Positions 4,770-14,027 are shown, numbered from the stretch's first letter. The stretch: DNA of 45,005 bases from a virus (IMGVR_UViG_2778261502_000007:1-45005), one strand, 5' to 3'. The notes: a model not told the origin generated them from the letters alone. Numbers and translations: made by a program.

Positions 4770-5189
4770 TTAAGAGGCTTTTTGTTTTTTCTTTCGTGCT
4801 AACTCTTCGTAAATTGCATTGTACTTCTGTTTTTTCTCCTCAAGAGTTTTTAAAAGTTCATCTGTCTCACTGTCAGGGAGCTCGTCCAGAAGGTCAATGA
4901 TGATTTTTTGTCTTGGATTTAACTCCTGATAGAAACGTACCTGTCCACTTTCTTCTGTATCCTCTCCCAAAAGATAGGTTGGTGTTGTTCCAATTAGTGT
5001 TGCTAATTCCCTTAATTTCTCTCGGCGAGGAATTGTTTCGCCATTAAACCATTTGCTAACCGCTTTTGGTGTTAATTTCATTCGACGGGCAATTTCTGCC
5101 TGCCTTCCATGTTGTTCATAACCAGCGTTTTCACAGGCTAGCGCAAGCCTACTGGCGAACTCTTTACGCGCTTTATCTTCATGAACCAT
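4770..5189 (-). CDS. XRE-family HTH repressor (CI/DicA/RacR-like), 139 aa
   Basis: HTH segment QAEIARRMKLTPKAVSKWFNGETIP; C-terminal charged helical tail; divergent from Cro-like gene. Confidence 0.75.
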   Translation of the reverse strand: MVHEDKARKEFASRLALACENAGYEQHGRQAEIARRMKLTPKAVSKWFNGETIPRREKLRELATLIGTTPTYLLGEDTEESGQVRFYQELNPRQKIIIDLLDELPDSETDELLKTLEEKKQKYNAIYEELARKKKQKAS

Positions 5190-5268
5190 AAGTTCAATGA
5201 TATTCGCTCTTGAATGTACTGTCAGTTCTGTTATAACATGTACTCAAAGTTCACATTGTGAGGGTGAT
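5190..5268. promoter_or_regulatory. OR-like divergent promoter/operator region
   Basis: 79 bp between divergent repressor and cro-like starts; two ATGTACT sites (5214-5220, 5238-5244) spaced 24 bp. Confidence 0.5.
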
Positions 5269-5523
5269 ATGAACCAGAAAACACTTGAAGATGTAATCAA
5301 AACTGTTCGCGTTTCTGTTGTGGCCGACGTTTGTGGTGTCAGCCAAAGAGCAATCTACAAATGGATGGATAACGGAAAATTGCCTCGCACAGAATATACC
5401 GGCGAAACAAATTACGCTGAAAAAATCGCTCATGCATCAAACGGATTATTTTCTGCCGATGCAATTTTAACTATTGGCAGAAATAAAACTACTACGAAAA
5501 AGCGGATGGGAGTTGATTCATGA
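5269..5523 (+). CDS. Cro/YdaS-like HTH protein (84 aa)
   Basis: Internal ATG of track ORF 5197..5523; HTH VADVCGVSQRAIYKWMDNGKLP. Confidence 0.65.
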   Translation: MNQKTLEDVIKTVRVSVVADVCGVSQRAIYKWMDNGKLPRTEYTGETNYAEKIAHASNGLFSADAILTIGRNKTTTKKRMGVDS

Positions 5524-5942
5524 AAATCAAGCATGAGCACATCGAATCAGTGTTGTTAGCCCTGGCAGCCGAAAAAGGGCAGGCATGGGTAGCCAATGCA
5601 ATTACTGAAGAATATCTGCGCCAGGGGGGCGGCGAATTGCCCCTGGTTCCAGGCAAGGACTGGAACAATCAGCAGAATATCTATCACCGTTGGTTGAAAG
5701 GTGAAACGAAAACGCAAAGAGAAAAAATTCAGAAGCTGATCCCAGCAATTCTGGCAATCCTTCCGCGCGAGCTGCGTCACCGACTCTGCATCTTCGATAC
5801 CCTGGAACGCCGTGCATTACTGGCGGCGCAGGAAGCGTTGAGTACGGCGATTGATGCGCATGATGATGCAGTCCAGGCCGTTTACCGGAAAGCGCATTTC
5901 AGCGGCGGCGAGTCGTCCGGCGATTCTGTCGTAGTGCATTGA
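5520..5942 (+). CDS. ydaT: YdaT-like protein (140 aa; CII-position regulator)
   Basis: ATGA overlap with upstream gene; length and position match Rac ydaT as recalled. Confidence 0.55.
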   Translation: MKIKHEHIESVLLALAAEKGQAWVANAITEEYLRQGGGELPLVPGKDWNNQQNIYHRWLKGETKTQREKIQKLIPAILAILPRELRHRLCIFDTLERRALLAAQEALSTAIDAHDDAVQAVYRKAHFSGGESSGDSVVVH

Positions 5943-5986
5943 TTGAAATTAATCGTGCCGGACTGTTTTGTTCGGTATCAGTTAAA

Positions 5987-6430
5987 TGTAACGCTCACAG
6001 CGTTACAGGGTGAAAACAATATGGCTTCAAACTGGATAAAGCTCGAGGTTATTACGCCGGATAAGCCGGAAATATTCAGGCTTGCTGAGATTCTGAATAT
6101 TGATCCAGATGCCGCATTAGGGAAAGTCATTCGCTTCTGGGCATGGGCGGATCAACAAATGATAGACGGTAACGCAGAGTGTAACGCACGCGGCGTTACA
6201 AAAAGCGCAATTGATCGCATCACTTTTATGGCTGGTTTTGCTGATGCGTTAATTCAGGTTGGATGGCTGGTCGAAACTAATGGTGTGTTGTCGCTTCCTA
6301 ACTTTGAGCGCCATAACGGGAAAAGCTCTAAAAAACGGGCGGTTACAAACGAGAGAGTTACAAAAATACGCGAACTGAAACGAAAAGGTAACGCTGCCAG
6401 CGTTACACAAACGGATCAAAAAGCGTTACC
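5987..6430. repeat. Iteron-like GTAACGC / GCGTTAC repeat cluster (candidate origin)
   Basis: Perfect palindrome TGTAACGCTCACAGCGTTACA at 5987-6007; related inverted pairs near 6181-6199 and 6388-6407; half-sites near 6169, 6342, 6357, 6423. Confidence 0.45.
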
Positions 6431-6809
6431 AGAGGAAGAGGAAGAGGAAGATATAAATACTGATCTCCCTCTAAATCTCCCTCACCAAAAACGAGCGACT
6501 AAAAAATTCGACCCGTTGTCAGTTGCTCTGCCTGAGTGGTTGCCGGAAACACTCTGGCATGAGTGGGTTCAATTCAGGCAGGCATTGCGAAAACCGATTC
6601 GAACGGAGCAGGGCGCTAACGGGGCGATACGGGAGCTGGAAAAATTCCGCCAGCAGGGTTTTACCCCTGAGCAGGTGATTAGACACAGCATTGCCCATGA
6701 ATACCAGGGCTTGTTCGCGCCGAAAGGCGTTCGGCCTGAGACGTTGCTTCGACAGGTTAACACCGTCTCGTTTCCGGACAGTGCGATCCCACCAGGCTTC
6801 AGGGGGTAA
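6021..6809 (+). CDS. ydaU: Replication initiator-like protein (YdaU/O-like)
   Basis: Track ORF 5943..6809 begins with TTG; ATG 6021 (MASNWIKLEV...) has GGGTGA upstream; immediately upstream of DnaC-like gene; start uncertain. Confidence 0.5.
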   Translation: MASNWIKLEVITPDKPEIFRLAEILNIDPDAALGKVIRFWAWADQQMIDGNAECNARGVTKSAIDRITFMAGFADALIQVGWLVETNGVLSLPNFERHNGKSSKKRAVTNERVTKIRELKRKGNAASVTQTDQKALPEEEEEEDINTDLPLNLPHQKRATKKFDPLSVALPEWLPETLWHEWVQFRQALRKPIRTEQGANGAIRELEKFRQQGFTPEQVIRHSIAHEYQGLFAPKGVRPETLLRQVNTVSFPDSAIPPGFRG

Positions 6810-6815
6810 CGAAGC

Positions 6816-7562
6816 ATGAAAAATATTGCGACAGGCGGCGTTCTGGAACGTATCCGCAGACTGGCCCCGCCACATGTAACCGCGCCATTCAGGACGGTGG
6901 CGGAGTGGCGCGAGTGGCAACTTGCAGAAGGCCAGAAACGTTGTGAGGAGATCAACCGTCAGAATCGTCAGTTGCGGGTGGAAAAAATCCTGAATCGCTC
7001 CGGCATCCAGCCGTTGCACCGCAAATGCTCGTTTGCGAATTACCAGGTGCAGAACGACGGCCAGCGATACGCGTTGAGTCAGGCGAAATCTATCGCTGAC
7101 GAACTGGTTACCGGATGCATAAATTTCGCGTTCAGCGGAATGCCTGGTACCGGAAAAAACCATCTGGCGGCGGCTATCGGGAATCGCCTGCTGAAAGATG
7201 GCCAGACAGTGATTGTGGTTACCGTGGCGGATGTCATGAGTGCTCTACACGCCAGCTATGACGATGGGCAATCAGGCGAAAAATTTTTGCGGGAACTGTG
7301 CGAAGTGGATCTGCTGGTTCTTGATGAAATTGGCATTCAGCGCGAGACAAAAAACGAGCAGGTGGTGCTGCACCAGATTGTTGATCGCCGGACAGCGTCG
7401 ATGCGCAGCGTGGGGATGCTGACAAACCTGAACTATGAGGCCATGAAAACATTGCTTGGCGAGCGGATTATGGATCGCATGACCATGAACGGCGGGCGCT
7501 GGGTGAATTTTAAATGGGAGAGCTGGCGCCCGAATGTTGGTCAGCCAGGAGTTGAAAAGTAA
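6816..7562 (+). CDS. ydaV: DnaC-like helicase loader (248 aa)
   Basis: Walker [14 protein letters not shown], Walker [10 protein letters not shown]; strong SD upstream. Confidence 0.8.
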
Positions 7563-7584
7563 TTTTTACCGGGAGGAAATTTTA

Positions 7585-8346
7585 ATGGAGACCGTTTTTG
7601 ACGCACTGAAAGCAATGGGAAAAGCCACGTCGGTAGAACTGGCAGCGCGACTTGATATCAGTCGTGAAGAAGTGCTGAACGAGCTGTGGGAACTGAAAAA
7701 GGCTGGCTTCGTTGATAAAAGCGTATACACCTGGCGTGTGGCTGATAACAACGTTCAGCAGGAACAGCCAGCACAGGCAGTACTGCCGGAAGAAACCACT
7801 ACGGCAACAGTGACGAAAATTTCGGAGAGCGATTTAACTTCGACGATTGAACAGCGTGGTCCACAAACGGCGGATGAACTGGCTACGCTGTTCGGTACAA
7901 CATCCCGCAAAGTGGCTTCAACGCTGGCAATGGCAATCAGCAAAGGTCGTCTGATTCGCGTTAATCAGAACGGTAAATTTCGTTACTGCATGCCGGGCGG
8001 TAATTTACCAGCAGAGCCGAAAGTTAAATCGATAGCGGAAACCGATGGTAAAGCCTTTCCTCAACCAGCAGGTGTTGCGTTACCGGTACAGGAAGCTGCA
8101 ACACAGGAAGATATTAAAACAGAAACTGTAGCGGACATTGTGCAGTCGTTGCCATCGTTCACCGAAACACAAGCGGATGACCTGGTTTTGCCATCGCTGC
8201 ATATGGCAAATCGCGAACTGCGTCGGGCGAAAAATCATGTCCAGAAGTGGGAGCGTGTCTGCGCCGCGCTGCGGGAACTGAACAAGCACCGGGATATTGT
8301 TCGACAGATTGTCTATTCCTCCAGTCGTATTGTGTCGGACAAGTGA
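7585..8346 (+). CDS. Hypothetical protein with two tandem winged-helix-like segments
   Basis: ATG 7585 after GGGAGG; segments [30 protein letters not shown] and [32 protein letters not shown]. Confidence 0.5.
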
Positions 8347-8361
8347 TTGCCGGAGGCGCTT

Positions 8362-8784
8362 ATGGCAAAAGTATTTACACAAGAAGAGCGGGAAAAAATT
8401 AAGGGGCAGGTTGTTGAACTCGTGCGCCAGAGTGGGCGCGAGACGTTACGACAACTGGAAGCCAAGACAGGTGCGACAAGATATTTAATGAGCGTTCTCG
8501 CCAGAGAGCTGGTTGCCAGTGGCGATGTATACAATTCTGGCTACGGGTTATTTCCCTCTGAACAGGCTCGTAAGGACTGGCAAAACGCCCGCAAAAAACT
8601 CTCGAGGGCAAAGGCGAAGAAACCGGCTGTGGTTGATCCGGGCTTTATCTGGTCGTTACCAGATGGAGAAATACGTCGTTATGACAGGCGTCTAAACATA
8701 ATCTGTCGCGAGTGCCGGAAGAGCGAAACTATGCGGCGTGTACTGGCGTTCTACCAGGGGAATTTTCAGGAGGTGTTATCGTGA
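8362..8784 (+). CDS. Hypothetical 140 aa protein
   Basis: ATG 8362 with GGAGG 6 nt upstream; track ORF starts at TTG 8347. Confidence 0.45.
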   Translation: MAKVFTQEEREKIKGQVVELVRQSGRETLRQLEAKTGATRYLMSVLARELVASGDVYNSGYGLFPSEQARKDWQNARKKLSRAKAKKPAVVDPGFIWSLPDGEIRRYDRRLNIICRECRKSETMRRVLAFYQGNFQEVLS

Positions 8785-9332
8785 GTGAAATTAACCATCA
8801 GGTACTACGTGAGATAGCAAAACAGGCAACACAGGGCGAATGGGTCGCATTTATTTCGACGGGTACTGGTACGTATGCGGTGCATACGCCCGGTGATAAA
8901 CGATGTGAAGACGTTATCAAATGGCCCGGTTTTGACGGACAGAAAAACGCAGAGAACAACGCTCGTTATATCGCAGCTTTCAACCCTGCAGTAGTGCAGG
9001 CGCTGCTGGATGAGCGGGAAGCCCAAAACAAGCATATAGGAGAGTTGGAGGCTAATCTTGTGGCGCTGGCGGCGGAGAATGCAGAGGTGAAGGCGATATG
9101 TGATGACCGTCGCAGGTTTATCATGAATGTGGTGCAACTTGGGCATATCAAAGCGCCAGCAATGAAAACAAAATCGGGGCTTGAAACAATTCGTATTGCT
9201 ATATCACCACAAAAGCCCACTCCGGCCACCGATGTTTTTCTGGCTGAAGTGCGGGCGTTGCGTTTAACGACCTTTGCGCGGCGTTTGTCAGGCACGCAAA
9301 AGTTGCAGGGCTGGATGATGTCGATACCGTAA
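8781..9332 (+). CDS. Ead/Ea22-like protein
   Basis: GTG start after AGGAGG; N-terminus SEINHQVLREIAKQATQGEWVAF plus coiled-coil segment resemble Ead/Ea22 family as recalled. Confidence 0.45.
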   Translation: MSEINHQVLREIAKQATQGEWVAFISTGTGTYAVHTPGDKRCEDVIKWPGFDGQKNAENNARYIAAFNPAVVQALLDEREAQNKHIGELEANLVALAAENAEVKAICDDRRRFIMNVVQLGHIKAPAMKTKSGLETIRIAISPQKPTPATDVFLAEVRALRLTTFARRLSGTQKLQGWMMSIP

Positions 9333-9491
9333 CGCTTAATGAAGCAACGGATGCGCTGCTGCATTGTGTGGAACAGCTTCGCGCTCCAGAATAATTAAAT
9401 TTAGTACTGTAAATAAAATTTAATCCTTAACCGGAGGGATTCCTGCAACCTCAATACATCAGGAGTCCGTCCGAAAGGGCGGTAATGAAAA

Positions 9492-10469
9492 ATGACAGAA
9501 TTAACCAAAGAGCAATTAATCGAAGAAGCCAAATTAAAAATAGCGATTGCGAAATGCCACCCCAATTCAGGGATGGCACGGGTAGAGGGCGAGTTATTCA
9601 AAATTGCACTGGCATCGCTGGAAGCAGAACCGATAGCGTGGGTATGCGGAGAAAACATAATCCTGTTTAATCCTGACACAGTTGAAGCATACGCAAAACG
9701 CGCGGAGATATCGCCTAAACCACTATATGCCGCGCCGCCAGTTCCTGTAATACAGGCTGATGTCGCGCAAGCAATTGAAAATCTCAAGCAGAAGTTAGTG
9801 GAATGCAATCGCTATAACTACTGCGCAGATGCAGTTAAAGGTGTTGAGGATGCCAGCCGCGTCTTTGCACTCCAAAATCAAAATATGTCAGCACCGATAA
9901 CGCCGGAGGCCATTGAAAACGCAATTGAATACATCCGCAGTATCGCTTTTCACATCGATGAAGACGATTACCACGGCAAACATATTGCGTATTTCATGCG
10001 ACAAGCATTGGCCTGGCTGGAAGGGCATTCATGCTGCGATGACAGACAAGGTAAAGCCGACAATCAACCAGTACGCGGTAACCAGGCTGCCGAATTCAAT
10101 AACGGTAATGAGTGGAACGGCAATCCTGATATTGATGACGCAATCATCATGCTCGACCGCATAGATACGCTGGAAAGTTGCGATGATGACCGTATTGAAG
10201 CGGTTAAGGCCGTTTTGCGTGGACTGGCTGGCAACTCTCCGGTAACTCCGGATGGTTGGATAAGCTGTAGTGATGCTGTTCCTGCGGAATACTGCGATGT
10301 GATTCTTTGCGATGATCTCGGGAATGTATTCCCCGGTTCCTGGGATAAGGTTTTTTGCCCCACTCGTGGCGGGAATAAGATGGCTTTTGTGGACAAAGAC
10401 GGCGTCGAAGTAGAGAGCTCAACTCACTGGATGCCGCTACCGGAACCATCGCAGGAGGTGAATCAATGA
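9492..10469 (+). CDS. DUF551-like protein (325 aa)
   Basis: C-terminal ...HWMPLPEPSQ motif recalled for DUF551. Confidence 0.5.
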   Translation: MTELTKEQLIEEAKLKIAIAKCHPNSGMARVEGELFKIALASLEAEPIAWVCGENIILFNPDTVEAYAKRAEISPKPLYAAPPVPVIQADVAQAIENLKQKLVECNRYNYCADAVKGVEDASRVFALQNQNMSAPITPEAIENAIEYIRSIAFHIDEDDYHGKHIAYFMRQALAWLEGHSCCDDRQGKADNQPVRGNQAAEFNNGNEWNGNPDIDDAIIMLDRIDTLESCDDDRIEAVKAVLRGLAGNSPVTPDGWISCSDAVPAEYCDVILCDDLGNVFPGSWDKVFCPTRGGNKMAFVDKDGVEVESSTHWMPLPEPSQEVNQ

Positions 10470-10549
10470 GCTGGCCTGAAGCATTCACAACGGTAGGAAT
10501 TGCAATGGCGGTGGCGCTGGTGGTGTATTCGATTTGCCGCTGGGGATAA
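10466..10549 (+). CDS. Candidate 27 aa single-TM peptide
   Basis: ATGA overlap with DUF551 stop; MSWPEAFTTVGIAMAVALVVYSICRWG; below track cutoff. Confidence 0.25.
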   Translation: MSWPEAFTTVGIAMAVALVVYSICRWG

Positions 10550-10679
10550 AAACGATTTGCGGGAAAAGGATAGTTAAGTAGAATTGCTGCGGGTGCTTGA
10601 GGCTGTCTGCCTCGGGCATGCCACTGTAAGGCAGACAGAGAAAAGCCCCAGTTAACATTACGCGTCCGGCAAGACGCTT

Positions 10680-10760
10680 AACATTAATCTGAGGCCAATT
10701 TCATGCTTTGCACATGTAGGTTAGCCTCTTACGCGCCGGAAGGCAAGGAGAAGCAGGCTA
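10680..10760 (-). ncRNA. Sok-like antisense RNA (approximate)
   Basis: Inferred from hok family organisation only; boundaries not determined. Confidence 0.3.
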
Positions 10761-10915
10761 TGAAGCAGCAAAAGGCGATGTTAATCGCCCTGATCGTCAT
10801 CTGTTTAACCGTCATAGTGACGGCACTGGTAACGAGGAAAGACCTCTGCGAGGTACGAATCCGAACCGGCCAGACGGAGGTCGCTGTCTTCACAGCTTAC
10901 GAATCTGAGGAGTAA
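10760..10915 (+). CDS. hok: Hok/Gef-family type I toxin (51 aa)
   Basis: MKQQKAMLIALIVICLTVIVTALVTRKDLCEVRIRTGQTEVAVFTAYESEE; in-frame upstream leader from 10703; structured 5' region with 9 bp inverted repeat CTGTCTGCC...GGCAGACAG. Confidence 0.85.
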   Translation: MKQQKAMLIALIVICLTVIVTALVTRKDLCEVRIRTGQTEVAVFTAYESEE

Positions 10916-11381
10916 GAGACCTGGCGGGGGATAAATCCCTCGCCACCTCTGATGTGTCAGGCATCCTCAACGCACCCGCACTTAACCTGCTTTGGCGGGT
11001 ATATTTTATCTGTGAATGTTTTTATAAAAATAATGCCCACGCACAGCATAAAACAAAAAGTATTACAGATAAAAAAGGAACGTAATGTGCAGATTTGTTG
11101 TTTTCCATATTTACTCACCTTAATATGATTAACCCTGATAGGGTTGTTATTTCAGCGGTTTTCAAATGAGATATTATGGTGATCTGACAAATTTGCATAA
11201 CATTAAAATTTAATTTGTTTAACCGCTTTTAATAATAAGCGTTGTTTGTATCCCAGCAATCTGTTGTTTGGTTTTTATTCCATTAAGGTGGGGGCTTTAC
11301 ACTGGAACCAGTTTATTTATACTTTATACGTCAGCCTGAACAACTGGCATCTGCTGCACTGCGCCATCGAGAGATTGAGAA

Positions 11382-11981
11382 ATGGCGCATATACAACTGG
11401 TCAAACAAACCTCTTCTGGTTTACTTCTCCCGGCGACGCCGGAGAGTTGCGATTTTCTGCATCAAATCAAAATAGGTGAGTGGATACACGCAGACTTTAA
11501 GCGTGTGCGTAACTACGCATTCCACAAGCGTTTTTTCAAACTCCTGCAACTCGGATTCGATTACTGGACTCCGGTCGGTGGGGCGATCACGCCTCGTGAA
11601 CGAACACTGGTGTCAGGTTTCGTTGATTACCTGTGTGACTCGGTAGGCAGGGAACATACGCCAGCCCTGAGCGAAGCCGCAGAGCAATATCTGAATACAG
11701 TTGCGACACGCAGAACCCGGGATACGGCATTGCTAAAGTCGTTTGAGGCTTTTCGCGAGTGGGTAACCATTCAGGCTGGATTTTACACCGAACATTTTTA
11801 TCCGGACGGTAGCCATGGGCGTCGGGCGAAATCCATCGCTTTTGCGAATATGGACGAAACCGAGTTTCAGCAGGTTTATAAATCTGTACTGAATGTGCTG
11901 TGGAACTGGATTCTGTTCCGTAAATTTTCCTCTCCGGAACAAGTCGAAAATGTGACTGCACAGCTGCTGGAGTTTGCGTGA
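11382..11981 (+). CDS. Conserved nin-region protein (possibly DUF1367-like)
   Basis: 199 aa; family from memory, low certainty. Confidence 0.45.
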   Translation: MAHIQLVKQTSSGLLLPATPESCDFLHQIKIGEWIHADFKRVRNYAFHKRFFKLLQLGFDYWTPVGGAITPRERTLVSGFVDYLCDSVGREHTPALSEAAEQYLNTVATRRTRDTALLKSFEAFREWVTIQAGFYTEHFYPDGSHGRRAKSIAFANMDETEFQQVYKSVLNVLWNWILFRKFSSPEQVENVTAQLLEFA

Positions 11982-12271
11982 TGGCAGATTTACGTAAAGC
12001 GGCGCGGGGCCAGATGTGTCAGGTCAGAATTCCTGGGTACTGCAATCACAATCCCGAAACTTCCGTGCTGGCGGATTACAGACTGGCGGGGACGTGTGGA
12101 ACAGCGACAAAGCCACACGATATGCAGGCTGCAATTGCCTGTAGCTCATGCCACGATTTAATCGACGGGAGAGTAAAAACCAGCGATTACACCAAAGAAG
12201 AATTACGCCTGATGCATGCAGAAGGTGTTTTTCGCACACAAGAAATCTGGAGAAAGGAAGGTTATTTATGA
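11978..12271 (+). CDS. YbcO-like Cys-rich protein (DUF1364-like)
   Basis: MMADLRKAARGQMCQVRIPGYCNHNPETSVLA... with several Cys/His; ATGA overlap with Q gene. Confidence 0.5.
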   Translation: MMADLRKAARGQMCQVRIPGYCNHNPETSVLADYRLAGTCGTATKPHDMQAAIACSSCHDLIDGRVKTSDYTKEELRLMHAEGVFRTQEIWRKEGYL

Positions 12272-12819
12272 TTTACCCAACAAATACAGGAAAAAGCGGG
12301 GAACACCTTCGTCTCACCACGCTGGAAAGTGTCTGGATTCAGGGAAAACTGCGTATGTGGGGGCGCTGGTCGTATATTGGCGGCGGTAAGACGGGGAATA
12401 TGTTTAACCAGTTGCTGGCATCCAAAAAATTGACGAAAACAGCCATCAATGAAGTTCTGCGCAGGATGAAAAAAGCGGGGATTGATAAGACGGAACTGGA
12501 GGCATTTTTGCGGGAAATGCTCGACGGTAAGCAGAAAAGCTGGTTGTCTCATTGTACTGATGCCGAGGCGTTATGTATTGATCGGGTAATTAGCGAAGTG
12601 CTGGTCGAGTATCCGGGATTAATTAGCATCCTCCGACAACGATATGAAGGGCGGGGAATGAGCAAACTGAAAATGGCAGAGCAGTTAAATGAAAATCATC
12701 CTGACTGGACATTAATTACCTGTCGACGTCGTATCGATCAATGGCTGATGATTGCTGAATTTATGCTTTATAAACCAATGTTCACGGCACAAAAAAAACT
12801 ATTGCAAAGTGAGCAATAA
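12268..12819 (+). CDS. Q-family late antiterminator (183 aa)
   Basis: ATG 12268 after AAGGAAG; ...KLRMWGRWSYIGGG... resembles QuuD-type Q; followed by terminator, promoters and late genes. Confidence 0.55.
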   Translation: MIYPTNTGKSGEHLRLTTLESVWIQGKLRMWGRWSYIGGGKTGNMFNQLLASKKLTKTAINEVLRRMKKAGIDKTELEAFLREMLDGKQKSWLSHCTDAEALCIDRVISEVLVEYPGLISILRQRYEGRGMSKLKMAEQLNENHPDWTLITCRRRIDQWLMIAEFMLYKPMFTAQKKLLQSEQ

Positions 12820-13141: not shown

Positions 13142-13217
<76 letters not shown>

Positions 13218-13220
13218 TAT

Positions 13221-13295
<75 letters not shown>

Positions 13296-13945: not shown

Positions 13946-14027
13946 CCGTCACTAACTCATTGGGTAAGAGTGCATAACACATATTGTTGTTTTGTGGTGC
14001 GGGGTTCGAGTCCCCGGTGACGGTCCA
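13946..14027 (+). other. tRNA-like element (tRNA remnant or atypical tRNA)
   Basis: Canonical acceptor CCGTCAC/GTGACGG, T-arm CGGGG-TTCGAGT-CCCCG and 3' TCCA, but anticodon arm does not fold canonically. Confidence 0.3.

Follow-up and report, generated by a model that had tools for sequence, protein, structure and literature searches.

The interval from ~10556 to ~11008 of a 45,005-nucleotide stretch of viral DNA (IMGVR_UViG_2778261502_000007, referred to here as "the window" at its full length) very probably holds a complete hok/mok/sok module of the hokW/hokD subfamily, with a mechanism like that of plasmid R1 and prophage Sp5 and a role linked to prophage induction. A hok/sok-type type I toxin locus had been proposed at this site in a first-pass annotation, and the assignment is borne out by the toxin family, the mok frame, a Sok promoter and hairpin, covariation between the tac and fbi elements, and homology to the mokW/hokW/sokW genes. 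The span originally given, 10560–10915, correctly located the locus but ended too early, at the stop codon of hok; the transcript is predicted to reach ~11008. Because the 3′ UTR holds a stem-loop, fbi and a terminator, the locus is delimited here as ~10556–11008.

Modules of this kind are already known, having been annotated in phage 933W (1999) and functionally characterized in Sp5 (2021), and activity of the elements in the window copy would be expected by analogy with R1 hok/sok and Sp5 hokW-sokW. The value of the present locus for annotation is that mok, Sok and the 3′ UTR are all present in an intact locus of the hokD/hokW type, for which RefSeq-style annotation calls "hokD" alone.

Toxin gene and overlapping mok frame

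The hok toxin gene (10760–10915, + strand) encodes an intact product of 51 aa, MKQQKAMLIALIVICLTVIVTALVTRKDLCEVRIRTGQTEVAVFTAYESEE. This product matched the Pfam family HOK_GEF (PF01848) with E=1.2e-23 and 82.9 bits against a cut-off of 22, covering 42 of 42 profile positions, and PHROG 251 ("MokW-like host killing") with E=6e-33. The generic Hok models of NCBIfam matched it below their curated cut-offs (51.4 versus 73 bits); the NCBIfam search with the window Hok returned no HokD-specific model and Hok matches at sub-threshold scores only. The protein is 100% identical to RefSeq WP_000813255.1 (annotated as HokD, E. coli CD45) and 94% identical to HokW of phage 933W. It shares 50 of 51 residues (98%) with K-12 HokD/RelF, the one change being S49P, in agreement with the near-identity to Hok/RelF toxins noted in the first-pass annotation. 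The hok Shine-Dalgarno (SD) sequence AGGAG (10746–10750, + strand) lies 9 nt before the ATG at 10760 and adjoins the Sok −35 box on the opposite strand; CAAGGAG is nearly invariant in the alignment of 41 loci described below (alignment A4).

The in-frame leader extension that had been noticed upstream of hok corresponds to a mok ORF of 70 aa (10703–10915, + strand), which starts with the ATG at 10703, is in frame with hok and ends at the common stop codon, as do mokW and hokW in 933W. The offset between the two start codons is 57 nt, as in the annotated mokW/hokW pair of 933W, and many homologous loci also have an in-frame N-terminal extension of hok. The mok SD, GAGG (10691–10694, + strand), stands 8 nt before ATG 10703 and is invariant in A4. 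It is covered by Sok and, in the full-length fold, sequestered by the element termed ucb. An overlapping mok frame with its own SD is present, and translation of hok through mok would represent coupling of the kind described for the known system.

The Tyr47 codon of hok lies within a TACG motif (10898–10901, + strand) that is a candidate site for A-to-I editing by TadA, by which Tyr would become Cys. The longer motif TACGAA is invariant at this codon in 41 of 41 aligned loci. TadA editing of the homologous Tyr, A-to-I and therefore Tyr-to-Cys, is known from K-12 hokC, hokD and hokE (PMC5630033). When the window sequence was folded, a local hairpin presenting the TACG motif was weak and not significant.

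Related loci and their alignment

Related loci were collected by a scan of one genome per species, which gave 53 loci. The 41 distinct loci having GGG[TC]GCTT 141–170 nt before the hok ATG were aligned (A4); they come from Escherichia, Shigella, Kluyvera, Citrobacter, Pseudocitrobacter, Photorhabdus, Pantoea, Erwinia and Kalamiella. To avoid fitting the alignment to the structure, A4 was not edited by hand. Note that the Photorhabdus fbi, which is without the bulged C, is shifted by one column in A4, due to which pairs 7–12 of helix 1 are under-counted as unpaired.

Imposed on the 41 loci, the full-length structure of the window RNA was 84.6% paired, compared with 38–43% for controls with partners slid by 1–3 columns, although this "cells paired" measure is favoured by the structure having been taken from one member of the alignment. 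Counts of pairs in which both sides have changed are less affected. The covariation score was 0.174 versus 0.06–0.08 in the slid controls, and none of 500 shuffles reached the observed pairing and covariation values. Duplex prediction with RNAduplex, using an 80-nt 5′ window against a 100-nt 3′ window, produced over-extended duplexes and diluted z-scores; only the core tac/fbi sequences were read from it, and support for pairing was instead drawn from A4 and the pair counts.

By megablast, the locus was matched in 4728 of 5426 complete E. coli genomes, where it is annotated as hokD (best match 98.3%), and in 102 phage records including 933W with its annotated mokW, hokW and sokW.

Several of the collected loci are unusual in their surroundings. 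Photorhabdus species have many hok/sok copies, and a contig of Photorhabdus temperata (L035) carries three tandem hok leaders at 2356, 2985 and 3603, spaced by ~620–630 bp and each matched by the Rfam model. In Erwinia sp. CGal63 (L051) a hok leader at 2292 stands ~95 nt past three CRISPR-DR4 repeats (2050–2197), such that the hok/sok locus directly adjoins a CRISPR array.

Predicted ends, promoter and structure of the mok-hok mRNA

A scan with Rfam, which had been suggested as a check for Sok and hok mRNA elements, matched RF01794 at 10591–10765 on the hok-sense strand (113.6 bits, E=3e-25), a score that argues against a chance origin of the locus. RF01794 bears the name "sok antitoxin", but its matches lay on the hok-sense strand in all loci, and the hok AUG is where its consensus stops. 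The model describes the leader of the hok mRNA and not antisense Sok, and its strand should therefore not be taken as the strand of Sok.

The full-length mok-hok mRNA is predicted to be ~418 nt long (10591–11008, + strand). Its 5′ end was placed at ~10591 using position 1 of the Rfam model and the conserved motif GGGYGCTT, which lies 141–170 nt before the hok ATG; its 3′ end was placed using a terminator-like hairpin and T run. The putative hok/mok promoter (10556–10584, + strand) consists of a weak −35-like hexamer, TTTGCG (10556–10561), and a −10 hexamer, TAGAAT (10579–10584). A hexamer of the form TAnnAT or TAnnnT is found 6 nt before GGGYGCTT in 41 of 41 loci, with TAGAAT, TATAAT, TATATT and TAGTAT as variants, and the −35 region is not conserved. 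The intrinsic terminator-like hairpin, ACCUGC/GCGGGU followed by a U-rich tail (10985–11008, + strand), forms helix 19, which is poorly aligned across loci (49% paired); the terminator is accordingly supported in the window sequence only.

The minimum free energy (MFE) structure of the full-length mRNA has −173 kcal/mol (z=−7.1), and in it the two ends of the molecule are paired together. The translational activator element tac, GGGUGCUUGAGG (10591–10602, + strand), is nearly invariant in A4 and can pair with either fbi or ucb. The fold-back inhibitory element fbi, the 13-nt sequence CCUCAACGCACCC (10965–10977, + strand), is complementary to tac and is part of inverted repeat I3. In the MFE, 10591–10601 pair with 10966–10977. 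This tac-fbi helix (helix 1) is 88.8% paired over the 41 loci, and its pair 4/410 covaries, being UA in 26, CG in 11 and UG in 3.

The ucb or anti-SD box, AAGCCCC (10643–10649, + strand), was recognized in both the full-length MFE and the fold of the isolated 5′ domain. In the former, C10646–C10649 pair with the mok SD, G10691–G10694. The pairs concerned (57/108, 58/106 and 59/105) are invariant across loci, and covariation is therefore evidence neither for nor against them. When the first 60 nt were folded alone, GGG.GCUU paired with AAGC.CCC, which joins tac to ucb (−32 kcal/mol, z=−3.6), and this tac-ucb stem is the consensus structure of the Rfam model matched by the window. The arms of the leader's inverted repeat, 10592–10612 and 10629–10649, account for the long inverted repeat reported in the first-pass annotation. 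Since ucb can be held by the mok SD or by tac, the leader has the makings of the switch described for R1 hok mRNA (PMC9841398). The MFE of a 3′-truncated RNA had a short 5′ tac hairpin with the mok SD still paired and did not convert into the open form with tac-ucb pairing, and an open structure of the Rfam type lay ~19 kcal/mol above the leader MFE, with imperfect threading in the third hairpin. For these reasons the open form is treated here as one expected from homology.

A 3′-UTR stem-loop, GGCGGGGGAU/AUCCCUCGCC (10922–10946, + strand), folds with −18.5 kcal/mol (z=−4.85); its helices (17–18) are 97.6% paired over the 41 loci, with some compensatory changes. By analogy with R1 (PMC9841398), this candidate protector would shield the 3′ end of the processed mRNA.

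Predicted antisense RNA and its promoter

Sok is predicted to be a 71-nt RNA transcribed from the − strand, from 10711 to 10641, the ends having been assigned by homology to the annotated sokW misc_RNA of 933W in alignment A1. In its fold (−28.6 kcal/mol, z=−4.7), an unpaired 5′ tail of 15 nt precedes a long hairpin, and a U run closes the RNA. Compensatory pairs are present in the hairpin across the 41 loci: pair 62/102 is AU in 28 and GC in 13, and pair 66/97 is GC in 28 and AU in 12.

The Sok promoter (10718–10746, − strand) comprises the −35 hexamer TTGCCT (10746–10741), a 17-nt spacer and the −10 hexamer TAACCT (10723–10718). It is convergent with hok, and the predicted start is ~10711. 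All 41 loci have TTGCCT or TTGACC on the opposite strand just before the hok ATG, and positions A−11 and T−7 of the −10 element are invariant in A4. In alignment A1 with 933W, the −10 hexamer of the window is the one mutated in the "pro-less" construct of sokW (primer YO-421; PMC8621323, Table 2). A scan for strict consensus promoters placed both the hok and the Sok promoter below threshold, due to there being only 3–4 matches of 6 per hexamer; the promoter calls made here are based on conservation across loci and on the published mutation of the sokW promoter. The first-pass annotation had named a missing Sok promoter and a disrupted hok ORF as findings that would count against a hok/sok locus; the promoter is conserved and the ORF is intact.

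The hairpin that Sok would target (10693–10727, + strand; a helix of the Rfam model, −9.1 kcal/mol) holds the mok start codon and has a 7-nt loop, CUUUGCA (10706–10712). The 5′-terminal bases of Sok, in its unpaired tail, are complementary to this loop, which contains UUUG, a motif of the YUNR type. In R1 hok/Sok, a U-turn role of the YUNR-type loop is established. A cis-encoded Sok with its own promoter and with complementarity to the mok initiation region is, as far as sequence can indicate, present in the window.

Comparison with known systems

The closest characterized relative is the mokW/hokW/sokW locus of the Stx2 phage 933W and the Sakai prophage Sp5 (AF125520; Takada et al. 2021, PMC8621323), which matches the window locus with 92.4% DNA identity across 93% of the query. 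The two loci share the in-frame 70-aa mok, the 71-nt Sok region, identical tac and fbi, an identical Sok −10 and spacer sequence, and a conserved 27-aa ORF just before the locus. HokW of 933W differs in three C-terminal residues (TA to VD, final E to K), and the sequence past fbi, including the terminator, diverges. Their positions also differ: the 933W locus is near the right end of the record beside L0134–L0136, whereas the window carries its copy in the nin region, flanked by the replication genes and Q. Because the 933W/Sp5 locus lies elsewhere in the phage genome, its physiological role may not transfer.

In K-12, hokD (relF) of the cryptic prophage Qin is nearly identical to the window in the SD, ORF, 3′ stem-loop, fbi and terminator, and it too belongs to a lambdoid element, where it precedes a Q-like antiterminator gene that has the same orientation. 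Unlike the window locus, it has no hok promoter, tac, ucb, Sok gene or promoter, or mok start; homology to the window begins at ~10746, and relBE is found 71 nt upstream instead. An Rfam scan of the K-12 hokD locus gave no match. The window carries the locus in its intact form and K-12 a truncated version of that form, and the two provide a clean natural contrast.

Among the collected loci, one in Kluyvera sp. (L028) and one in E. coli ECDA1023 (L007) have relBE-type sequence in place of the leader directly before hok, like K-12 Qin, indicating that the relBE-hokD truncation is not confined to E. coli K-12.

The hok/mok/sok (parB) locus of plasmid R1 resembles that of the window in its tac/fbi, ucb and mok SD elements, in having Sok antisense to the mok initiation region, and in its 70-codon mok; an R1-type plasmid copy was matched by RF01794 in the same orientation as the window. 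HokW-type toxins have only ~44% identity to R1 Hok (PMC8621323). The R1 replicon is a conjugative plasmid and the window a phage, and the Sok hairpin of the window has a 16-nt insertion relative to the Rfam consensus. In R1 the mok AUG is at 116–118 and the hok AUG at 174–176 (PMC9841398), an offset of 58 nt that places mok out of frame, versus 57 nt and in frame in the window.

An IncFII plasmid, pMTY1886 (L057, 344–559), has mok in frame at a 57-nt offset and a Hok that is 100% identical to the R1 Hok query. Set against the 58 nt of R1, this means that the mok frame is not conserved even among close R1-type loci. The 57-nt in-frame offset is common to the window, mokW, mokC-type loci and this one IncFII R1-type variant, and the variability of the frame fits the view that translation of mok matters, not the Mok product.

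Chromosomal mokC/hokC (gef) shares the in-frame mok and the 5′ end GGGTGCTTGAGGC with the window, and it has a conserved Sok −35 element (TTGACC) and a toxin 82–84% identical to that of the window. It differs in being without the 16–18-nt insertion in the Sok hairpin, in having a −10 element of the CACTCT type, and in its chromosomal, non-phage context.

Proposed mechanism

On the model of the characterized systems, the weak promoter would give rise to a stable mRNA of ~418 nt in which the 5′ tac pairs with the 3′ fbi. In this closed form ucb would mask the mok ribosome-binding site, and no translation would take place. Slow trimming from the 3′ end back to the stem-loop at 10922–10946 would remove fbi, after which tac could capture ucb and the mok SD and start codon would become exposed in the loop of a hairpin. 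As long as the element stays transcriptionally quiet, this loop and the mok initiation region would be paired by Sok, the short-lived 71-nt RNA made from the convergent promoter inside mok. Such pairing would block translation of mok and hence of the coupled hok, and would leave the duplex open to RNase III. Once the supply of Sok ends, Mok and Hok would be translated, and the 51-aa Hok would enter and collapse the inner membrane. By analogy with hokW-sokW, the trigger would be prophage induction, and Hok would speed lysis and phage release.

Biological role

The data on induction of hokW-sokW, taken with a survey of hok loci, point to an induction-coupled aid to lysis as the most likely role of the module, by analogy. 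HokW arrests growth, and sokW, which was detected by northern, counteracts it, partly via RNase III and Hfq (PMC8621323). After RecA-dependent induction the sokW RNA is lost, and HokW becomes detectable in the inner membrane; deletion of hokW-sokW delayed growth arrest by ~40 min and halved the phage released (PMC8621323). The survey found HokD to be toxic on overexpression, hok genes to be ~four-fold enriched in prophages, and hok loci not to be enriched near defence systems (12% versus 9.4% expected; bioRxiv 10.1101/2025.08.07.668861).

These same observations bear on the two roles suggested in the first-pass annotation, prophage stabilisation and abortive infection. Everything that post-segregational killing requires is present, namely an mRNA with a stable closed form and a short Sok whose promoter is conserved, and the enrichment of hok genes in prophages would suit a module that acts as in R1: upon loss of the prophage, the unstable Sok would disappear, the stable hok mRNA would stay and the cell would die. 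We nevertheless regard such prophage addiction as somewhat unlikely, because the hokW-sokW deletion in Sp5 had no growth phenotype unless the prophage was induced, the measured effect being on lysis and release (PMC8621323), and because chromosomal hokA, hokB and hokC are reported to be unable to mediate post-segregational killing (as cited in bioRxiv 10.1101/2025.08.07.668861). A defensive function has less in its favour. A lytic phage that stops transcription would cause Sok to decay, and Hok could then kill the cell before the phage completes its cycle; this regulatory logic fits abortive infection or superinfection exclusion, and R1 hok/sok is reported, as cited in PMC8621323, to have cut the plating efficiency of T4 by 42% and to have reduced plaque size. 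That result was obtained with a high-copy plasmid, not with single-copy loci of the hokW/hokD type, and together with the lack of enrichment near defence systems it makes defence quite improbable as the main role. Either addiction-like stabilisation or exclusion of other phages is possible as an additional role beside the induction-coupled aid to lysis.

The locus might instead be a remnant that is never expressed, as hokD of the K-12 Qin prophage is regarded, to which its protein is 98% identical. The K-12 gene, however, has only the SD, ORF and 3′ UTR in common with it, has relBE upstream and has no Rfam match, whereas the window copy keeps the leader, mok, Sok promoter, tac and fbi without disruptions. 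A relic of this type was rejected by alignment A2, and we consider it extremely improbable.

The nin-region location of the module suggests that toxin release could be tied to early phage transcription. The replication genes, hok and Q are all on the + strand, and we offer the tentative and rather doubtful proposal that this early rightward operon position, with the Sok promoter opposing it, allows derepressed early transcription after induction to switch the module on directly. Through transcriptional interference, early transcription could occlude the Sok promoter that faces it, and read-through hok-sense RNAs would carry tac away from a free 5′ end. The one mildly new idea here is that, through placement in this operon, derepression of early transcription could bring about the loss of Sok. 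If true, it would account for the RecA-dependent loss of sokW RNA on induction, hitherto unexplained, and Hok would be a built-in lysis accessory timed by induction rather than an addiction or defence module.

Phage context and neighbouring features

The carrier is, by its gene content and order, a Rac-SA53-like lambdoid temperate phage with hok in its nin region; its immunity, replication, nin/Q, lysis, packaging, head and tail modules follow the lambdoid order. From ~5197 to 12819 all genes are on the + strand; a repressor gene (4770–5189) is on the − strand upstream. The order on the + strand is O-like, DnaC-like loader, DUF1627, DUF551, 27-aa ORF, hok, DUF1367, DUF1364/HNH and Q-like antiterminator, past which come tRNAs and the genes for holin, endolysin, terminase, portal, head and tail fibres; the protein genes were assigned using PHROG and Pfam. 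The late region is 95.2% identical to phage Rac-SA53 over 82%, and the early region is ~93–94% identical to Rac-type E. coli prophages. The first-pass annotation had called the locus prophage-borne. That it is phage-borne is supported, as only phage genes are found in the window; an integrated state is not, as neither host genes nor an attachment junction was found within the 45 kb, the left end being already in the recE-like region and the right end in the tail-fibre genes.

A record named "Actinobacillus phage vB_Apl-pPE4" (PP818812.1) is ~95% identical to the late region of the window, with a hok locus at 94.4%. It resembles an E. coli Rac-SA53-like phage, and its host attribution is questionable.

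Past the Q-like gene, the tRNA region (13142–13295 and 13946–14027, + strand) encodes tRNA-Thr(UGU) and tRNA-Gly(UCC), on which Rfam and ARAGORN agree. ARAGORN alone also called a tRNA-Tyr of 82 nt whose anticodon, AUA, is unusual; this third call falls below the Rfam gathering score and is doubtful.

The 27-aa ORF (10466–10549, + strand) encodes a hydrophobic peptide, MSWPEAFTTVGIAMAVALVVYSICRWG; it overlaps the DUF551 stop codon (ATGA), and 41 nt separate its end from the start of the hok mRNA. Searches of Pfam, NCBIfam and PHROG gave no match for it. It is conserved, though with substitutions, in both 933W (MTWPEAFANVGTVMAVVLVVYSICRWR) and E. coli CD45, where it is unannotated, and its product may be a small peptide of the membrane that is associated with the hok cassette. 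Downstream, an AT-rich spacer of 373 nt (11009–11381) separates the hok terminator from the DUF1367 gene. It contains a promoter-like site (11102–11129) and terminator-like hairpins at 11130–11146 and 11224–11241, and in E. coli CD45 a hypothetical CDS is annotated in the equivalent gap.
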